Virus record (IMG/VR): IMGVR_UViG_3300033067_000303
Location: 1 to 28,630 of that record
Length of the DNA: 28,630 bases
Direction: 5' to 3' (one strand)
Source: a virus
Lineage: Duplodnaviria; Caudoviricetes
Below the pieces are notes generated by a model. It was not told where the DNA came from, searched no databases, and saw nothing but the letters and a program-made list of their open reading frames with translations. Both the position numbers and the translations under genes were made by a program. Of the stretch, positions 25 to 28,057 are shown piece by piece. The first letter of the stretch is position 1; each line of letters opens with the position of its first letter.

Positions 25-264
25 ATGCACATTGAACCGCTGGTGAAGATTGACCAGATCGAAACAGGCGACCTGCTGCTGATTGACGATGGGATCGGCA
101 TTACGCACGCCAAGGCGCAACGGGTGAAGGTTTCTGAACACGATGGCACCGAGGTGATTTTCAACCTGCGCAAGAACAAGTTTTTCAACGTCGGGATGTA
201 CCTCAACGGGAAGTCGTGGGCGAAGGACGTTCGCATTGTGCGAAGGGTGCCTTCTAACGCCTGA
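25..264 (+). CDS. Hypothetical protein, cassette gene 1 (ends PSNA* inside attC1)
   Basis: 79-aa ORF with an AAAGGA RBS; the TGA stop lies inside the attC-like site. Confidence 0.8.
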   Translation: MHIEPLVKIDQIETGDLLLIDDGIGITHAKAQRVKVSEHDGTEVIFNLRKNKFFNVGMYLNGKSWAKDVRIVRRVPSNA

Positions 265-314
265 GATAACCGGAGCGCCGATTGCGGCGCGTCCGGTTGA
301 TTGAATAGTTAGGT
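252..314 (-). mobile_element. attC: Integron attC-like site 1 (63 bp)
   Basis: Minus strand reads ACCTAAC TATTC AATCAACC GGA C GCGCCG CAAT CGGCGC TCC GGTTATC TCAGGC GTTAGAA. This gives R'', an 8-nt L'', a stem with an extrahelical base, a 7-nt L' and R'. Confidence 0.9.
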
Positions 315-328
315 TGCGGAGGTTGAAT

Positions 329-751
329 ATGCGATTTGAACCACAGTTGCCGAAGTTGATTGCCGCCAGATTCCCCGGCGTGTGCGACTTTGAAATAGAC
401 CACCTTGCGGAGCGAGTGCAGCCGGTGGAGTACGAAGACTGCAAAGGACGCATGGCGAACGAGTGGCCGCCTGTGGCGTGTTGGCGCGTTGGGGTGCAGC
501 GGTTCAGGTATGTACTGAAGCCGACTTTCCGCGCCGAGCGGTGGGGCGTGCTGTGCTTTGGTGGGACGACTGTACGCGCCAACTACAGCGACGAAGATGG
601 CAAATTGTGGCAACTGCTGCAATGGTCATCCGAAGGAAAGACTGCGGATGAGATGAACCGACTGCTCGGCAACGAGCAACCTAACGCACTAGCTCAGGCG
701 GACGCCGCTTGCGGCGTGTCGCCTGGAGCGATGGGTTCGGCGGCGGATTGA
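329..751 (+). CDS. Hypothetical protein, cassette gene 2 (reads through attC2)
   Basis: GGAGG RBS and ATG at 329 (ORF track starts at 314); QPNA is followed by an attC-encoded tail LAQADAACGVSPGAMGSAAD. Confidence 0.75.
   Translation: MRFEPQLPKLIAARFPGVCDFEIDHLAERVQPVEYEDCKGRMANEWPPVACWRVGVQRFRYVLKPTFRAERWGVLCFGGTTVRANYSDEDGKLWQLLQWSSEGKTADEMNRLLGNEQPNALAQADAACGVSPGAMGSAAD
679..741 (-). mobile_element. attC: Integron attC-like site 2 (63 bp)
   Basis: Minus strand reads GCCGAAC CCATC GCTCCAGG CGA C ACGCCGC AA GCGGCGT CCG CCTGAGC TAGTGC GTTAGGT. Confidence 0.9.
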
Positions 752-772
752 AACGATGAAAGGAAACGGACG

Positions 773-979
773 ATGAATGAAGTAGTGATTAAGCGGGAAC
801 TGGCAGAAGCAACGCAGCGCATTGTGAAGTCCCGCGACCCGAACATGCCCGCCGTTGCCAACGTGCTAAACGCACTCGGTGATCTGCTCTCGGCATGGAC
901 CGGCGAGACGGTGCGTGTGCAAGTGACTGCCGAAGGCCAGACCGAGGCGGTGGATATGGTTAAGCCGAGAACGCAATGA
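773..979 (+). CDS. Hypothetical protein, cassette gene 3
   Basis: 68-aa ORF with an AAAGGA RBS directly after attC2. Confidence 0.75.
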   Translation: MNEVVIKRELAEATQRIVKSRDPNMPAVANVLNALGDLLSAWTGETVRVQVTAEGQTEAVDMVKPRTQ

Positions 980-1008
980 GTAGCGCCGGCCTGACGCCGA
1001 ACGCTTAG
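976..1008 (+). CDS. Mini-ORF MSSAGLTPNA* coupled to gene 3
   Basis: ATGA overlap with the gene 3 stop; it enters attC3 in the same frame as the other cassette genes. Confidence 0.35.
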   Translation: MSSAGLTPNA

Positions 1009-1078
1009 GTGATGGGCCGAGGCAACGCCAGTTGCCGAAGGTCCAGCGCGAAGCGTGACATCGACCGCTGTGTTATGC
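996..1078 (-). mobile_element. attC: Integron attC-like site 3 (83 bp)
   Basis: Plus strand GCCGAAC..GGTGATG...CATCGACC..GTTATGC, with the extra base in the right L box and an internal GGCAAC/GTTGCC hairpin. Confidence 0.85.
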
Positions 1079-1098
1079 GGGTTTTGAAAGGAATTTAG

Positions 1099-1314
1099 AT
1101 GGACAAAGAAGAACAGCAGGAAGAACTACAAGAAGCGTTCGCTGCATTTGCAGCCGAGTACCCGCAAAGCGCCCTTGCCCTGATAATCGGCCTGTTTGTT
1201 GGCCTGCTTGAATACAGCGTGAAAGAGCAAGGTGGCGACGAGACGCTGGCGATCAAGATTGACGGATGCGGGAAGCGGGACATCACTGTTTCGGCGATGC
1301 CTCATAACGCTTAG
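1099..1314 (+). CDS. Hypothetical protein with a hydrophobic segment, cassette gene 4 (ends PHNA*)
   Basis: 71-aa ORF with an AAAGGA RBS; the TAG stop lies inside attC4. Confidence 0.8.
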   Translation: MDKEEQQEELQEAFAAFAAEYPQSALALIIGLFVGLLEYSVKEQGGDETLAIKIDGCGKRDITVSAMPHNA

Positions 1315-1391
1315 GTAACAAGTCGCCGCGACTGGTGGCAATTTTACGAATAACGCTCATTGCGGCGGTCTTGTTGACCGTTGAGTTGGGC
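1302..1391 (-). mobile_element. attC: Integron attC-like site 4 (90 bp)
   Basis: Plus strand TCATAAC..GGTAACAAG TCGCCGCGA...TTGCGGCGG T CTTGTTGACC..GTTGGGC. Confidence 0.85.
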
Positions 1392-1411
1392 CGGTTTTTG
1401 GAGATTGAACG

Positions 1412-1714
1412 ATGAATGGAAGAATACTCACCTGTGTTTATTGCGGGCACGAATACCCCCAGGACACACCGGCAGCAGGAAGCCATGTGCTGACGCAGCA
1501 CATCAAGGTTTGCGAGCGGCACCCAATGCGGAAGGCCGAAGGCGACATTGCTCTGCTGCGCGGCGCGCTTGTTGGCCTGATCGGCGCAGACGGCGAGGAC
1601 GATTTGCGGCAGATGGAAGCGACGATGCGACTTTTGCCGGCACCGGACGCCGATAAGGCGGTTTCGATCAACGCGATTCACGCGCTGCTGGCGACCATGA
1701 CGCCCAACGCCTGA
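1412..1714 (+). CDS. Zn-finger-like phage protein, cassette gene 5 (ends TPNA*)
   Basis: CVYC...HIKVC..H motif; GGAG RBS; stop inside attC5. Confidence 0.8.
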   Translation: MNGRILTCVYCGHEYPQDTPAAGSHVLTQHIKVCERHPMRKAEGDIALLRGALVGLIGADGEDDLRQMEATMRLLPAPDADKAVSINAIHALLATMTPNA

Positions 1715-1762
1715 GATAACCCGACGGCCGTCAGGTCGGTCGGGTTGATTGAATAGTTGGGC
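1702..1762 (-). mobile_element. attC: Integron attC-like site 5 (61 bp)
   Basis: Plus strand GCCCAAC GCCTGA GATAACCCGA...TCGGGTTGATT GAATA GTTGGGC; the outer arms are nearly identical to attC1. Confidence 0.9.
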
Positions 1763-1786
1763 GGATGACGCCCGGAGAGGACTGAG

Positions 1787-2029
1787 ATGGCCTGCCCTAG
1801 ATGCGGATGCAAGGAAACATACCACTACGACGACGAAGACGCGCCAGACGATAACTGGGAACGGTGTGCGGCGTGCGGTGTGATTTTTGACATTGAAGAT
1901 CACGCCGACGAAGAGGATGACGACATTCACCCGGCCATTTCGCTGCTTGATGCGATTCAAGACCGGCCAATTGAGACTGGAGCGGCGATTACCGACAAGT
2001 GCGTGAAGATGCCGCCTAACGCTAAGTAG
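1787..2029 (+). CDS. Acidic Zn-ribbon protein, cassette gene 6 (ends PPNAK*)
   Basis: CPRC...CAAC motif; GAGG RBS. Confidence 0.8.
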   Translation: MACPRCGCKETYHYDDEDAPDDNWERCAACGVIFDIEDHADEEDDDIHPAISLLDAIQDRPIETGAAITDKCVKMPPNAK

Positions 2030-2070
2030 ACGGCAAAACCGCCGTATACGCTGGCCCTTGCCGCCTATTC
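2010..2070 (-). mobile_element. Putative attI-like primary recombination site closing the array
   Basis: R box GTTAGGC on the minus strand (2014-2020) with no long attC hairpin; inverted repeat GTAGACGGC/GCCGTATAC; direct repeat TGCCGCCTA at 2010 and 2059. Confidence 0.5.
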
Positions 2071-2150
2071 TACGAAACACGGCACCGGAAAACATTGCAG
2101 CGCAAGCAACAACAGATTTGTGTTGCATATTTGAACAAAGGAAAAACAGC

Positions 2151-4527: not shown

Positions 4528-5289
4528 TTATGGCTTGAATAGAGTAAATGTTACTCGTCCGTTATCTCCAAGAGCAGGAGCGGTCGTATATGTTTTAATA
4601 GTTGCTTTTAATGTAGTGCATCCAGGATATAAAACACCGCAAATAATCGCCGAATACGATGGGTCTGCGTTTGAATTTACGACATAGTTATTATCAGCGA
4701 AAGCATTAGTGAAATTTACTTCATAAACCCCAGTTGATACTCTAGTAACTGAAGTTACGTTAAATGACGTCCCGGCTAATGGTGCATTTGTTCCTGCAAG
4801 CGTTCCATCGAAAACACATGCGGCCTTTACGCTAATGCTCGGAATGGCAGCATTCACAAATGCTGTGGTGGCAATCTTTGTACTGTTATCGCCAACAGTT
4901 TGGGTCGTTGCCGTAGTTCCATTTGGCAGCGCAGGCGCCCCGGAAAGATTGGCGGAAGTTCCGCTTGTATTCTGGTTAAGCGTTGGGAATGTGCAATTTG
5001 TAAGATTCCCTGACGAGGGCGTTCCAAGTGCGCCGCCCACTGTCACAAAATCTGCATCGCTAACTGCCGAATTAAATTGAGCAGCCGTTCCAGACACAGA
5101 ATTGTTTGCAAGACTGATTGTCTTATTGGCTAGCGTTTCTGATTTTGCTGCTGAAGCGTCATATACTTGACGAATAATTGCAGCTTGCGCCCTTATATGA
5201 TCGTCAATGACGTTAGGGGAATCTCCGCCGGAAGGAGAATTGCTACTTGCAGTCGCCGACAAATCGGTTATGCTGGATGGTATTGGCAT
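4528..5289 (-). CDS. Short tail fibre protein
   Basis: N-terminal anchor-like segment (DDHIRAQAAII), fibre motif TQTVGDNSTKIATTAFV, C-terminal VTRVSTGVYEVNF domain. Confidence 0.8.
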   Translation of the reverse strand: MPIPSSITDLSATASSNSPSGGDSPNVIDDHIRAQAAIIRQVYDASAAKSETLANKTISLANNSVSGTAAQFNSAVSDADFVTVGGALGTPSSGNLTNCTFPTLNQNTSGTSANLSGAPALPNGTTATTQTVGDNSTKIATTAFVNAAIPSISVKAACVFDGTLAGTNAPLAGTSFNVTSVTRVSTGVYEVNFTNAFADNNYVVNSNADPSYSAIICGVLYPGCTTLKATIKTYTTAPALGDNGRVTFTLFKP

Positions 5290-5320
5290 TTTTTCTCCAG
5301 TGCCTCACGGCATTAAGAGG
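5290..5320 (-). promoter_or_regulatory. Repeated hairpin-RBS element (copy before the tail fibre)
   Basis: CCTCTTAA TGCC GTGA GGCA CTGGAG AAAAA ATG. Confidence 0.7.
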
Positions 5321-15763: not shown

Positions 15764-15796
15764 TTCGTTTCTCCAGTGCCATCTCGGCGTTAAGAG
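15764..15796 (-). promoter_or_regulatory. Repeated hairpin-RBS element (before the major capsid gene)
   Basis: CTCTTAA CGCC GAGAT GGCA CTGGAG AAACGAA ATG. Confidence 0.7.
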
Positions 15797-16741: not shown

Positions 16742-16774
16742 TGTTTTCTCCAGCGCCATCTCGGCGTTAAGAGG
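16742..16774 (-). promoter_or_regulatory. Repeated hairpin-RBS element (before the scaffold gene)
   Basis: CCTCTTAA CGCC GAGAT GGCG CTGGAG AAAACA ATG. Confidence 0.7.
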
Positions 16775-19196: not shown

Positions 19197-21539
19197 TCAT
19201 GCGACGGGCCCATCAGTCCCGCGAATGATTTGATTTTGTTGCCCGATGCGATCCAGTGCCGCAGCGAATCCCTGCATAGCCATTGCCATTACATCGCTTT
19301 GATTAGTGGCTTCCCGATCCTTCTGAGCGCCCATTCCGGCAACGATTATTGAGGTTTCTGCCGCGAGTTGCGCTTTCCATTGCTCAAGCTGCATACGCTG
19401 CTGCTCTAGCGCCTGCTCATGCTCAAACTTCATCGCCTCAATCTGTAGATGCTGCTGAGATTCAATAGACTTCTTTTCAGCCTCAACCTGTGCGGCAAAA
19501 CGCGCTTGCTCCTGCTCAAGTTGCGTCTTGCGCTCCTCAAGCTGCATGGTCGCCTGAAACTTCTGAATGTCTGCCTGTTGGTTTGCCTGCGCTTGCTGTT
19601 GATTCGCTTGCAACTTGGCCTGCTCTAGCTGAACCTTCGGATCAACCTGCGGCTGCTTTGGCGGCTGCTTAGATGGATCGCTAAAGAACTTGTCGCCATT
19701 CTTGAAGCCAATGGCCTTGGCAAGTTCTTTTGTAGCCTCATAGACGCCCTGAGCATCCGCAACGCCTATCTGCAATGCCTCTCTTTGCACTTGGAGTACT
19801 TGCATCAGGTTATTAACCATCTGCGTCTTGTCGCCAGTGCCAAGTCCGACGTTGATCGAGATGTCAAAGCCATTCGACCACTCACGCGGATCAATATCTA
19901 CCCAATTGCCGTTTAGCCTAACGACCGAGCCTTTATCCTGATTCTGCAAGACGAGTTTAAGCATCATCTTGAACAGCTCGGTAAATCCTTCTGCGAAGTT
20001 TCGCGCAATCAAATCCACGCGCATATCAGAGCGATTCGTGACGGTCAGAACGCCCGTTGCTGTCTTGTTCAGCGAGTCCGAATCAGTTCCCTGCGAATAG
20101 CGCGTCCATCCAGTGCTATTCTCCAGGAAATCGTTCATCTGCTCGTTCATCGCCATTGCTGCGTTACCGTCAGCAGAAGCCTGATCCAATCTGCCAACAG
20201 CGCCAGGCTGCTTGATGCGAACCACTCCACCGGGGCGAGACGTGAGCAGGTCGTCTAGGTTGCACTGGCCTTCGACTGCGTAGTACCGGCCATTAACCTG
20301 CAAGTACAGGTTATCCAGTGCCGCCCGCATGATGTTCGTCTTGACGCGCTGCGATTCCATAGCCAGGTCAGCAATGGACAGGCCAAAGAAGCGATGCGGC
20401 AACTTCAGGCAGTCAATATCAACGAACGGGGCGCAATCCACGACTTCTTCGTCGAGTATTTTATTGCCAGCGCGGACTACCTTGATTAGCTCGGAAATAC
20501 CATCGCCGTCACGGTCGCAGCGGATATAGCACTCTGTCACCCATATGGAACGCTGCGACTCGTCCATTGATTGAACTGTTTCTGAGCTATAGGCATTCTC
20601 GTTATCAAACGATAGGCGCTCTATCCGCTCGGCGTTGTAATTCGCCGCGGTATCGTCGCCGGACAGGTCATCTACGTTTTTATATCCCATGGAGCGAAGC
20701 TCTGACAGCGTGCGCGGGACACGGTGCGCAACCATACGTGCGTCGGCAATCGTCTTTGCATCACGGCAAATCAGGAATTCTTCTGGAGGAACGTTATCAA
20801 CAGTCAGCTTGCCATCAGTCTTGACGCGCTTCACGGCAATGTCGTACAGCATCTTAGGCGGAGTCTGCTCGATCTGCTGCAACTGAGCTTGAGCCTGTTG
20901 AGCATCCATCATGGCGCGTTGATCGCCTTGTTGCGCGGCCTGCGTTGCCATCTGGATGTGCTGCGTCAGTTGCTCTATGGCTTGCTGACGTTGTTCTGCG
21001 TCTTCTTCGTCTGGATACGTGTTCTGCTCGATTGGCTCTACTTCCTCGTCGTCGAGGATTTCAGCCAGTTCGATTTCGTTAAGCCCTTTGTACTCTTCGC
21101 GCTTTTCTTCGTGGCGAGTATCCCAATAGACTTTAAGAATCCCCTTCTTCTGCAATAGCGCATCACGGAACCAAGTTTCAATGATCGTAAAGCCGCGATT
21201 CTTCTTGAAGAACAGGTAATTTATATAGTCAGTGGCTGATTGCGCCTTGTCTTCGTCGCCTGGCTTGGTGGCGACAAAATCAACCACTACATCCGACCCG
21301 ACGAATTTAGCCATCAGGCCCGGCAGCATCCACTCGATTACGTTGCGAACATCGGTAGATACTACAGTGGATCGCCCTTCAATATCGGGCGGTGATAAAT
21401 CGCCCTTGGGCAATCCGAGATAATAAAACTCAGCCTTTCGCCGCATCTCTGACAGTTTCCCGCCATGATAAGCAACGGCATTACGGATTTCATTATCCGT
21501 TAATGCAATAAGCTCGCTGTCAGATAGTGCTTTAGCCAT
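19197..21539 (-). CDS. Portal protein
   Basis: About 780 aa after TerL; GRS.VVS.DV, DALLQK.G..KV.W and VPPEEF motifs; Gln-rich C-terminal barrel; start MAKAL at 21539. Confidence 0.92.
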   Translation of the reverse strand: MAKALSDSELIALTDNEIRNAVAYHGGKLSEMRRKAEFYYLGLPKGDLSPPDIEGRSTVVSTDVRNVIEWMLPGLMAKFVGSDVVVDFVATKPGDEDKAQSATDYINYLFFKKNRGFTIIETWFRDALLQKKGILKVYWDTRHEEKREEYKGLNEIELAEILDDEEVEPIEQNTYPDEEDAEQRQQAIEQLTQHIQMATQAAQQGDQRAMMDAQQAQAQLQQIEQTPPKMLYDIAVKRVKTDGKLTVDNVPPEEFLICRDAKTIADARMVAHRVPRTLSELRSMGYKNVDDLSGDDTAANYNAERIERLSFDNENAYSSETVQSMDESQRSIWVTECYIRCDRDGDGISELIKVVRAGNKILDEEVVDCAPFVDIDCLKLPHRFFGLSIADLAMESQRVKTNIMRAALDNLYLQVNGRYYAVEGQCNLDDLLTSRPGGVVRIKQPGAVGRLDQASADGNAAMAMNEQMNDFLENSTGWTRYSQGTDSDSLNKTATGVLTVTNRSDMRVDLIARNFAEGFTELFKMMLKLVLQNQDKGSVVRLNGNWVDIDPREWSNGFDISINVGLGTGDKTQMVNNLMQVLQVQREALQIGVADAQGVYEATKELAKAIGFKNGDKFFSDPSKQPPKQPQVDPKVQLEQAKLQANQQQAQANQQADIQKFQATMQLEERKTQLEQEQARFAAQVEAEKKSIESQQHLQIEAMKFEHEQALEQQRMQLEQWKAQLAAETSIIVAGMGAQKDREATNQSDVMAMAMQGFAAALDRIGQQNQIIRGTDGPVA

Positions 21540-21570
21540 TAAAACCCCAGTGCCTCCCGGCATTAAGAGT
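21540..21570 (-). promoter_or_regulatory. Repeated hairpin-RBS element (before the portal gene)
   Basis: ACTCTTAA TGCC GGGA GGCA CTGGGG TTTTA ATG. Confidence 0.7.
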
Positions 21571-27125: not shown

Positions 27126-28057
27126 GCTGCATCCCGGTGATACTTGTTCTCGAGGCACTTGGCGAACCCGGACGGCGACATCAGAAAATCAATGTCAGCA
27201 ATGAACGGTGGCTTCCCTGGCTGCGCTTGAGCCTTGCCGGTCAGGAAGTCTGATTCGGCGCATATCTCGAAGAACTGACGCCATGCAGCGATACCGCCTT
27301 CACGGTCAGAGTAGCCAAAGGGAGCGCAATCAAGCTCTGCCGCTTCTTTCCATCTGGCTCGGATGGTTTTACGCCTTGCTTCGTTCAGAACCTTGACCGC
27401 AGGGTTAAGCGGCATGAGTTCGTGGTACAGAGCAATGATCGTGTCAGCAGGACATGGAGGCTTGCCGATCTGCTGCACCGTTGCCGACTTGTCGGCGACA
27501 TGGGGTTGTTCTTCTTCTTTTGGAGACGGAGACGGAGACGGAGACGGAGACGGAGACGGAGACGGAGACGGAGACGGAGACGGAGACGGAGACGGAGACG
27601 GAGCAGTGCTAGTTTCTGCAACGTGCATGCTACTAGCAGAATTATTCTTTGCTACGTTCCTAGTAGCAGCATAATCAGGCATGCGCCTAGCAGCTTCTTC
27701 GCGTCCATGATGCTTGCACAGAGCATTGAATTTAGCCTTCTCGCTGCGCTGCTCGGAACCTGCTGCCCAAGGATTGTGTTCTTCCCAATCGTGGATTGAA
27801 TAACCTTTTTCGTCGTTCACATCAAGGAAGCCTACAGAGATGAGCGCATCAACAAATGCGCCGTCTTCTCCTGACCAATCAACGGCCAGTTCAATGTCTT
27901 CAGAAAGCATTCCTGTAAGCTCTCCATCCGGCTTGTTTTGAGCCGCCCACAGGATAAGGCAAACAAGCCTCCAGGCAGACTCTGCGCCAGCCTTCTTAAT
28001 CAGCTTCTTTGTCTTTGGATGCGATGGCAACGCCACGCAAATACGGGCGTCAATCAT
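27122..28057 (-). CDS. Phage replication initiator (O-like)
   Basis: HPKT N-terminal wHTH, IHDW.EHN motif, Ser-Pro linker, DFL......K..E..Y C-terminus; directly upstream of the helicase. Confidence 0.85.
   Translation of the reverse strand: MIDARICVALPSHPKTKKLIKKAGAESAWRLVCLILWAAQNKPDGELTGMLSEDIELAVDWSGEDGAFVDALISVGFLDVNDEKGYSIHDWEEHNPWAAGSEQRSEKAKFNALCKHHGREEAARRMPDYAATRNVAKNNSASSMHVAETSTAPSPSPSPSPSPSPSPSPSPSPSPSPSPKEEEQPHVADKSATVQQIGKPPCPADTIIALYHELMPLNPAVKVLNEARRKTIRARWKEAAELDCAPFGYSDREGGIAAWRQFFEICAESDFLTGKAQAQPGKPPFIADIDFLMSPSGFAKCLENKYHRDAA
27522..27603. repeat. Perfect hexamer microsatellite (GGAGAC)13
   Basis: 13 exact copies plus GGAG; encodes (Pro-Ser)n on the minus strand. Confidence 0.97.

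Follow-up and report, generated by a model that had tools for sequence, protein, structure and literature searches.

Six small genes on the plus strand of a phage contig, at positions 25-2029 of the virus record IMGVR_UViG_3300033067_000303, form an array with attC-type recombination sites of the integron kind, in which the genes are inverted relative to classical cassettes and some of them end on a stop codon supplied by the neighboring unit. The window, by which we mean the entire record of 28,630 nucleotides (nt), is a phage contig judged 73% complete whose start falls within the array; five attC-type hairpins lie between the six genes, and one half site follows the last of them. We give a probability of roughly two in three to the reading that these are inverted cassettes which borrow a stop at the AAC triplet of the site, genes and sites having become co-adapted to the frame in which AAC is read as asparagine (the Asn frame), which would let any cassette be placed behind any other. 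An earlier note, made from the letters of the window, had drawn attention to the array; its observation was partly confirmed and its interpretation partly supported.

The five complete sites (Table 1) share the order AAC, 5-6 nt spacer, L box, stem, L box with one extra G, 5 nt, GTT; of the core boxes RYYYAAC...GTTRRRY, in which only AAC and GTT are invariant, sites 1-5 have both invariant triplets and some deviating flanking letters. This is the architecture of integron attC/IntI arrays as set out in the parts of the source available to us (PMC5027507): R and L boxes, 5-6 nt spacers, an extrahelical G, AAC at the R' crossover of the bottom strand, a hairpin fold and complementary ends of each cassette. 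A detector with the rule that L boxes lie 5-6 nt inside the R boxes and pair with one extrahelical G found sites 1, 2, 4 and 5 and no others in the 28.6 kb; three shuffles yielded none. Site 3 conforms to the rule on visual inspection only, and other phages carry near-identical sites. In site 1, a TGA lies inside the 6-nt spacer and the extra G is in the right L box. The plus strand gave the more stable fold at all five sites (plus/minus, sites 1-5: -17.4/-16.7, -19.4/-17.6, -22.4/-15.3, -13.9/-13.7 and -17.3/-14.0 kcal/mol), although the margin is small for two of them. Since the plus strand is the more stable one and carries AAC in R', which in the bottom-strand geometry used to orient the sites (PMC5027507, parts available) marks the bottom strand, the genes are inverted with respect to classical cassettes: none of the six shows the classical order, in which a top-strand gene has its own attC behind it. 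Each site's right end matches the next site's left end at 7-10 of 11 positions across the five bounded cassettes, and matching ends are a mark of excisable cassettes.

The inversion has a direct consequence for the C-terminus. A classical gene ends at its own R'' box, and shuffling therefore leaves its tail unchanged; here the gene lies on the bottom strand, the site precedes its own gene, and the 3' end of the gene abuts its own R' half and meets the crossover, so that the DNA past the crossover (AA/C) belongs to the next unit. The six AAC triplets (256, 683, 1000, 1306, 1706 and 2018) and the six peptide endings listed in the earlier note are all present. Its claim that every site is entered in the Asn frame holds for the five main genes, for which this frame is open upstream of AAC for 83, 126, 69, 99 and 83 codons (at 256, 683, 1306, 1706 and 2018), but not at 1000, where it is open for only 12; the TPNA-stop ending there is that of a mini-open reading frame (mini-ORF, 976-1008) and not of gene 3, for which all 13 listed homologues (three of them window-encoded entries) stop at the same place. 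Relatives of gene 3 were sought in the viral contigs and none was confirmed. A stop stands within 2-3 codons of AAC at five sites, whereas at 683 the gene reads 22 codons across the whole hairpin; four of the five crossing genes thus end no more than three codons past AAC. Wherever a window gene crosses, its stop does lie beyond AA/C in the DNA of the next unit, as had been proposed. Taken alone, five out of five crossing genes in one frame is weak evidence (p of about 0.01 with equal frames and about 0.2 under a codon-aware null of 74%).

Comparison between phages bears out the exchange of tails. Another 23 loci carry gene 4: in copies of 93-97% identity the protein ends in NA-stop, NAALTGAAQGD-stop, NAPHEGRT... 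or NAK-stop, each switching at AAC, and a copy at 90% identity switches there to NVKVRG-stop. In a second gene 4 lineage the tails are NALGEG..., NAEVTGA-stop and NLNSTTPDVA-stop. In still other relatives both N and site are absent, and the gene ends on a stop of its own at roughly that point. Among homologues of the gene 4 protein, 37/64 have N at the matching place followed by varied tails, and only 9/64 end in N-[AVT]; homologues of gene 2 carry many different tails after QPN. When contigs from four public runs were aligned to the array, they terminated or parted from it at the AAC boxes: beyond 2022 two different sequences follow, and 683, 1706 and 2016 are preceded by different genes. These are contigs only, whose joints are unproven. 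Some cassettes do borrow tail and stop from their neighbor. In many "hypothetical" phage proteins, the variable tail after P/H/S/A-N is of attC origin and is best trimmed before families are built.

We extended the analysis to a viral set assembled by four pattern scans, comprising at least 217 loci (L001-L217; 46 loci of one scan being short), in which the detector reported 474 sites in 789 kb against 4 in 262 kb of shuffled sequence. Removal of 89 duplicates (474 to 385), the window's own 4 sites, 46 without an upstream call and 15 of canonical type left 320, so that inverted sites, with a same-strand gene upstream, outnumber canonical ones 320 to 15; in a chromosomal control (bacterial genomes, 3/64 parts scanned, rich in Lysobacterales) 213 of 277 sites are canonical. 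The two ends of a viral cassette match at 5.6 of 8 positions (n=197); for random pairs, or for the two arms of a single linear site, the figure is 3.6 of 8. Leaving out 44 sites with a detector score below 15 reduced the 320 to 276 (unfiltered counts for the end classes: 140/92/79/6/3). In this set 117 genes cross as Asn, 71 use the TAA at the box, 82 stop earlier and 5 cross in another frame; one further gene, called as other-frame, was set aside as its stop ends on the first A of AAC. Thus 42% of the 276 genes borrow, and 96% of the crossers (117/122) do so in one frame, with p=3e-10 against an expectation of 0.74; the frames are far from random across this larger set of arrays. The proposal that cassettes are stop-less modules stands for the borrowing genes and falls for the 153/276 that stop on their own side. 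The tails of the read-through genes run from 2 to 93 residues (median 9). The longest, of 93 residues, comes from a site of the window's site-2 type in locus L082 (near 556 onwards); it appears to continue in frame into the following gene, a rare cassette fusion.

Much of this bias is passive. One motif occupies the eight bases ahead of AAC in all end classes and in canonical sites, where it stands on the non-coding strand; in this cassette end motif, TG-N-N-G-C-C/A-T-AAC, a TGA often falls 5 nt ahead of AAC and a TAA at the box, and self-stopping genes accordingly peak at distances of 5 and 8 nt. An analytic calculation from codon usage and motif predicts 53-69% Asn frame, gene interiors give 70-80%, and two motifs in genes far from arrays give 71-74%. 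The observed 96% departs from these, with p=6e-7 for a null of 0.80 and 2e-4 for 0.85, and marginally (0.03) for 0.90. A null drawn from "natural gene ends" was dropped, as it was dominated by a few high-weight matches, perhaps undetected sites. From these comparisons most of the frame bias is passive, and a residue above expectation remains.

The residue is accompanied by a second pattern, inside the sites. Where a phage site lacks the early stop, an inner-hairpin stop occurs in the Asn frame in 71 of 164 cases and in the other frames in 22 and 25 (by cluster, 53/17/22 of 106); where the early stop is present, the corresponding counts are 2/8/21 of 109 (clusters 1.5/6/7 of 43). At cluster level the difference has p=2e-8 for Asn-frame inner stops and there is no difference in the other two frames. 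Canonical sites are without this pattern (4.4/3.0/4.1 of 25 clusters; p=0.003 against phage). It holds also beside self-stopping neighbors (34/8/10 of 73) and is therefore a property of the site. Run-on past the next start, or fusion with it, would occur at 9 of 229 sites in the Asn frame and at 46 and 46 in the other two. The TAA of the L box closes the +1 frame in 5-nt sites (75/95) and the -1 frame in 6-nt sites (130/181); as the frame closed varies with the spacer, neither other frame is safe with every neighbor. The selected feature is likely, on this pattern of stops, to be closure of the Asn frame somewhere in the site. The earlier note had held that sites are selected to supply AAC-GCN-stop; selection for closure is in keeping with that, and the unit itself was rejected as the selected feature, since it stands on the non-coding strand in 164/213 canonical chromosomal sites and lies beside fewer of the stop-less genes (42/117) than of the self-stopping ones (75/153).

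Several points weigh against co-adaptation of genes and sites. The early stop is as common in canonical sites (by cluster, 14/36 canonical against 36/135 phage types), over half of the genes do not use borrowing, and the Asn frame is likewise preferred by canonical genes that continue through their own R'' box (18/23, in L218-L364; tails such as NNSFKPKPLRGSA-stop), from which it follows that much of the bias needs no special selection. The control is dominated by Lysobacterales, with only 36 clusters; the phage sites were found with patterns from the window's site types and are mutually related, for which clustering at 75% is a rough correction; and frames come from our own simple gene caller. 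A held-out set of 40 phage stretches yielded only 14 new sites, some of them false, with inner stops in 4/3/1 of 11. The contig, 73% complete, has no match to a tyrosine recombinase (PF00589). In addition, the detector misses the site-3 type (10 visible cases among further phage stretches), which carries an early stop, so that early-stop shares are somewhat low.

The same observations favor an alternative in which translation is under no selection, and the frame bias and nearby stops are a pure by-product of the integrase's extended target motif, GC-rich codon usage and the ancestral attC spacer. One motif serves all three end classes and the canonical sites and fits the position of CRGM in attG hotspots (10.1101/2022.09.11.507474, parts available), the early stop is there in canonical sites too, passive models reach 80%, and canonical read-throughs lean the same way. 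We nevertheless consider this explanation unlikely: 96% exceeds 0.80 and 0.85, though 0.90 only marginally, and it leaves unexplained why Asn-frame inner stops are confined to phage sites, and among these to the ones that lack the early stop.

Two further alternatives assign a function to the read-through itself. C-termini that are small and non-polar, -AA for example, are known to act as protease signals, and tails supplied by the neighbor might tune stability or activity, for example as protease tags, with shuffling retuning expression; the spread of tail lengths and the many tails of one and the same protein fit such a role. We regard it as very unlikely, since the hairpin sequence dictates the tails, no tail motif was seen beyond N-A, and the same family also occurs without a tail, an 11-member family having 4 Asn-frame, 4 TAA and 3 early-stop ends. 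The tails are probably tolerated rather than functional. Translation into the hairpin could instead melt the RNA stem or hand ribosomes to the next gene. In class 1 integrons ribosomes are known to be blocked in their progress by attC stems, and this is relieved by short ORFs within attC (PMC8876359, parts available, citing Jacquier et al.); among the 16 cassettes that end 12-70 nt early, 6 have an Asn-frame mini-ORF beginning at the upstream stop or close to it, a count for which no null was computed (L011, L108, L188, L197, L010 and L082, all like window 976-1008). Against this, Asn-frame stops fall near the next start in 30/229 sites, compared with 23 and 24 in the other frames; a Shine-Dalgarno (SD)-like motif precedes 218/232 downstream genes (750/995 elsewhere), and does so in 76/81 cases after stop-less genes and 103/111 after self-stopping ones; and 42/117 tails stop after two codons, at the foot of the stem. 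As the genes after sites have their own SD-like motif, the cassettes are translationally self-sufficient, and such coupling is highly improbable. The suggestion that translation into the hairpin keeps the operon expressed accordingly found no signal in stop-to-start distances or SD motifs.

Returning to co-adaptation to the Asn frame, we envisage the following course. Tails change at AA/C between phages, as the gene 4 copies show; a frame-independent end motif and codon usage make the Asn frame the commonest open reading (53-80% expected); and some four in ten chromosomal site types already spell an early Asn-frame stop, the L-box TAA closing a remaining frame according to spacer length. Selection may then have sharpened this head start into a convention: sites without an early stop would have gained a later one in that frame, and genes that cross otherwise would have been purged because of run-on or fusion with the next gene at about one site in five. 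Recombination would be carried out by an IntI-type integrase, acting in trans from the host or from the minority of phages that carry one. A wider reading, which we think distinctly doubtful, is of a phage-owned pool of inverted cassettes with common rules for translation, one exit frame for the genes and an assured stop in the sites; each integrase-driven shuffle would rewrite the upstream C-terminus and might tune the stability or activity of that protein, with cassette order serving as a regulatory code. In either case a recombination site would be under a second, translational constraint, the mobile module and its junction having converged on a standard interface.

As a means of finding such arrays, the x-N-A C-terminus proposed as a searchable signature performs poorly: x-N-[AVT]-stop ends only 41 of the 276 cassettes (15%). 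In the suggested search for PNA-like endings near attC, 1,036 genes of 21 array-bearing phages included 22 with such an ending, of which 16 coincided with a site either detected or visible and 6 had none there. Two or more x-N-[AVT]-stop endings in a row make a useful but insensitive flag.

Parts of this picture have been published already: attC sites themselves, phage clusters of attC sites lacking integron-integrases (CALINs; PMC9892861), and ORF-11, a stop-borrowing frame that spans the crossover (PMC8876359). With five clustered attC sites in 1.5 kb and no integron integrase nearby, the window array is a CALIN, and no intI follows site 6 within the window as it would in a complete integron. 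It resembles the phage CALINs and integrons of Qi et al. (2023; PMC9892861), which have attC clusters without integrase and methyltransferase cargo, and whose sites were shown to recombine with IntI1; the parts of that paper covered describe a typical or divergent arrangement and hold nothing on inverted genes, frame or borrowed stops. In TJE1, from the same system, the single array site detected is canonical, and orf1 and orf2 also read through R'' in the Asn frame (L394, 77-1046). Closest in principle is ORF-11 of attI1, which spans the crossover, takes an in-phase stop from the inserted cassette and varies in length (ORF-18), and which is described, in the parts available, as a single platform leader peptide promoting coupling (PMC8876359). 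Unlike it, in phages the cargo genes themselves borrow, at attC and on the opposite strand, and there is neither stop enrichment near starts nor a lack of SD-like motifs before downstream genes, as an ORF-11-type coupler would lead one to expect. Our literature search, with subscription journals largely outside its coverage, found no published account of inverted phage arrays or of the frame rule. What the present analysis adds are the controls, which show that the early stop is inherited, that most of the bias is passive, and that the apparently selected residue is reliable termination in one frame.

The end motif also resembles the attG hotspots, plain double-stranded targets without a hairpin (10.1101/2022.09.11.507474, parts available): G at -4 and G/T at -7 before AAC fit CRGM, positions 6-9, and 175/270 phage ends and 117/209 canonical ones agree with it. 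Cassette ends might accordingly have arisen by attG-like insertions near gene ends, and gene ends apparently cut at an integrase-type motif bear on how cassettes are made.

The 320 cassette genes fall into 278 protein families, and one family may end in all three ways. This supports a large phage-side pool of integron cassettes. About half of the 100 cassette genes scanned have PHROG matches with typical phage accessory functions, and the cargo includes DNA methyltransferases, RecT, exonuclease, excisionase, Lar-like and Mom-like proteins. Minus-strand ORFs were considered as the true cargo of the window array and rejected, the plus-strand genes having SD motifs, homologues and PHROG matches. 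Of 50 array-bearing phage records, 3 encode an IntI scoring above the TIGR02249 cut-off, adjoining the arrays; these (L150:3507-4421, L389 and L390; G021, G048 and G049) are near-complete phages of 39-43 kb with a true integron integrase, and the phage intI immediately follows an AT-rich half site with AAC and points the same way as the cassette genes. A read-through-type tail, ..PPNDEVSGRAA-stop, was also seen downstream of intI in L389, and the array of L383 ends in a similar half site. Virus Rctr41k (L395:4680-5678, GenBank) encodes an IntI-like protein annotated xerD, 47.5% identical to the L389 integrase, and the detector found no site in the 11.6 kb of it examined. Inverted-type sites were also encountered in a few bacterial loci (L221, L240, L309 and L312; Cellvibrio, Sphingomonas, Pseudothauera and Sulfuritalea), which may be prophages and offer host leads.

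In the window, the half-site sequence at the end of the array recurs behind a different cassette gene in L369; being common to different genes, it would act as a shared acceptor, attI-like or a decayed attC. A scan of viral contigs with the terminal half-site pattern gave no matches. No match was found for the window in Rfam, for 240-2150 in a blastn search of 50,697 GenBank phages, or for a sigma-70-like promoter in 1-2800; the array promoter probably lies upstream of the contig start.

Table 1. Genes and recombination sites of the window array (aa, amino acids; AAC and GTT given by first position unless a range is shown).
Feature	Coordinates	Strand	Description
Gene 1	25..264	+	79 aa, no family match; crosses site 1 with AAC read as Asn; PSNA-stop end, TGA beyond crossover
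attC-type site 1	252..314	+	AAC 256-258, predicted crossover between 257 and 258, GTT 308; window plus is the bottom (recombining-type) strand
Gene 2	329..751	+	140 aa; conserved up to QPN, then 22 codons through site 2
attC-type site 2	679..741	+	AAC 683, GTT 735; Asn frame without early stop
Gene 3	773..979	+	68 aa; own TGA 20 nt before AAC 1000; exception
Mini-ORF	976..1008	+	Putative ORF, 10 codons, MSSAGLTPNA-stop; ATG overlaps gene 3 TGA; enters site 3 in Asn frame
attC-type site 3	996..1078	+	5-nt spacer type, AAC 1000, GTT 1072; by eye, missed by detector
Gene 4	1099..1314	+	71 aa, phrog_18086; PHNA-stop end; other tails in other loci
attC-type site 4	1302..1391	+	5-nt spacer type, AAC 1306, GTT 1385
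Gene 5	1412..1714	+	100 aa, no family match; TPNA-stop end
attC-type site 5	1702..1762	+	AAC 1706, GTT 1756; site 1 type
Gene 6	1787..2029	+	80 aa, phrog_10675; Lar-like zinc ribbon match weak, below cut-off; PPNAK-stop end
Terminal half site (site 6)	2014..2105	+	AAC 2018, short hairpin, closing GTT box absent

Just past the half site, a 23-nt inverted repeat (87%; 2086-2108 and 2497-2519) flanks a gene at 2151-2468, and a similar gene lies behind the same half site in L369. The minus strand of the window encodes terminase, portal, capsid, DnaB, replication-initiator and Nin genes; a perfect run of the hexamer GGAGAC (27522-27597) lies inside the replication-initiator gene. A repeated element ending CGGCRTTAAGAG (15768-15796, 16745-16773, 5278-5319 and 21528-21569) is found just upstream, on the minus strand, of the capsid, scaffold, tail-fibre and portal genes, and may be a late promoter or other regulatory motif.

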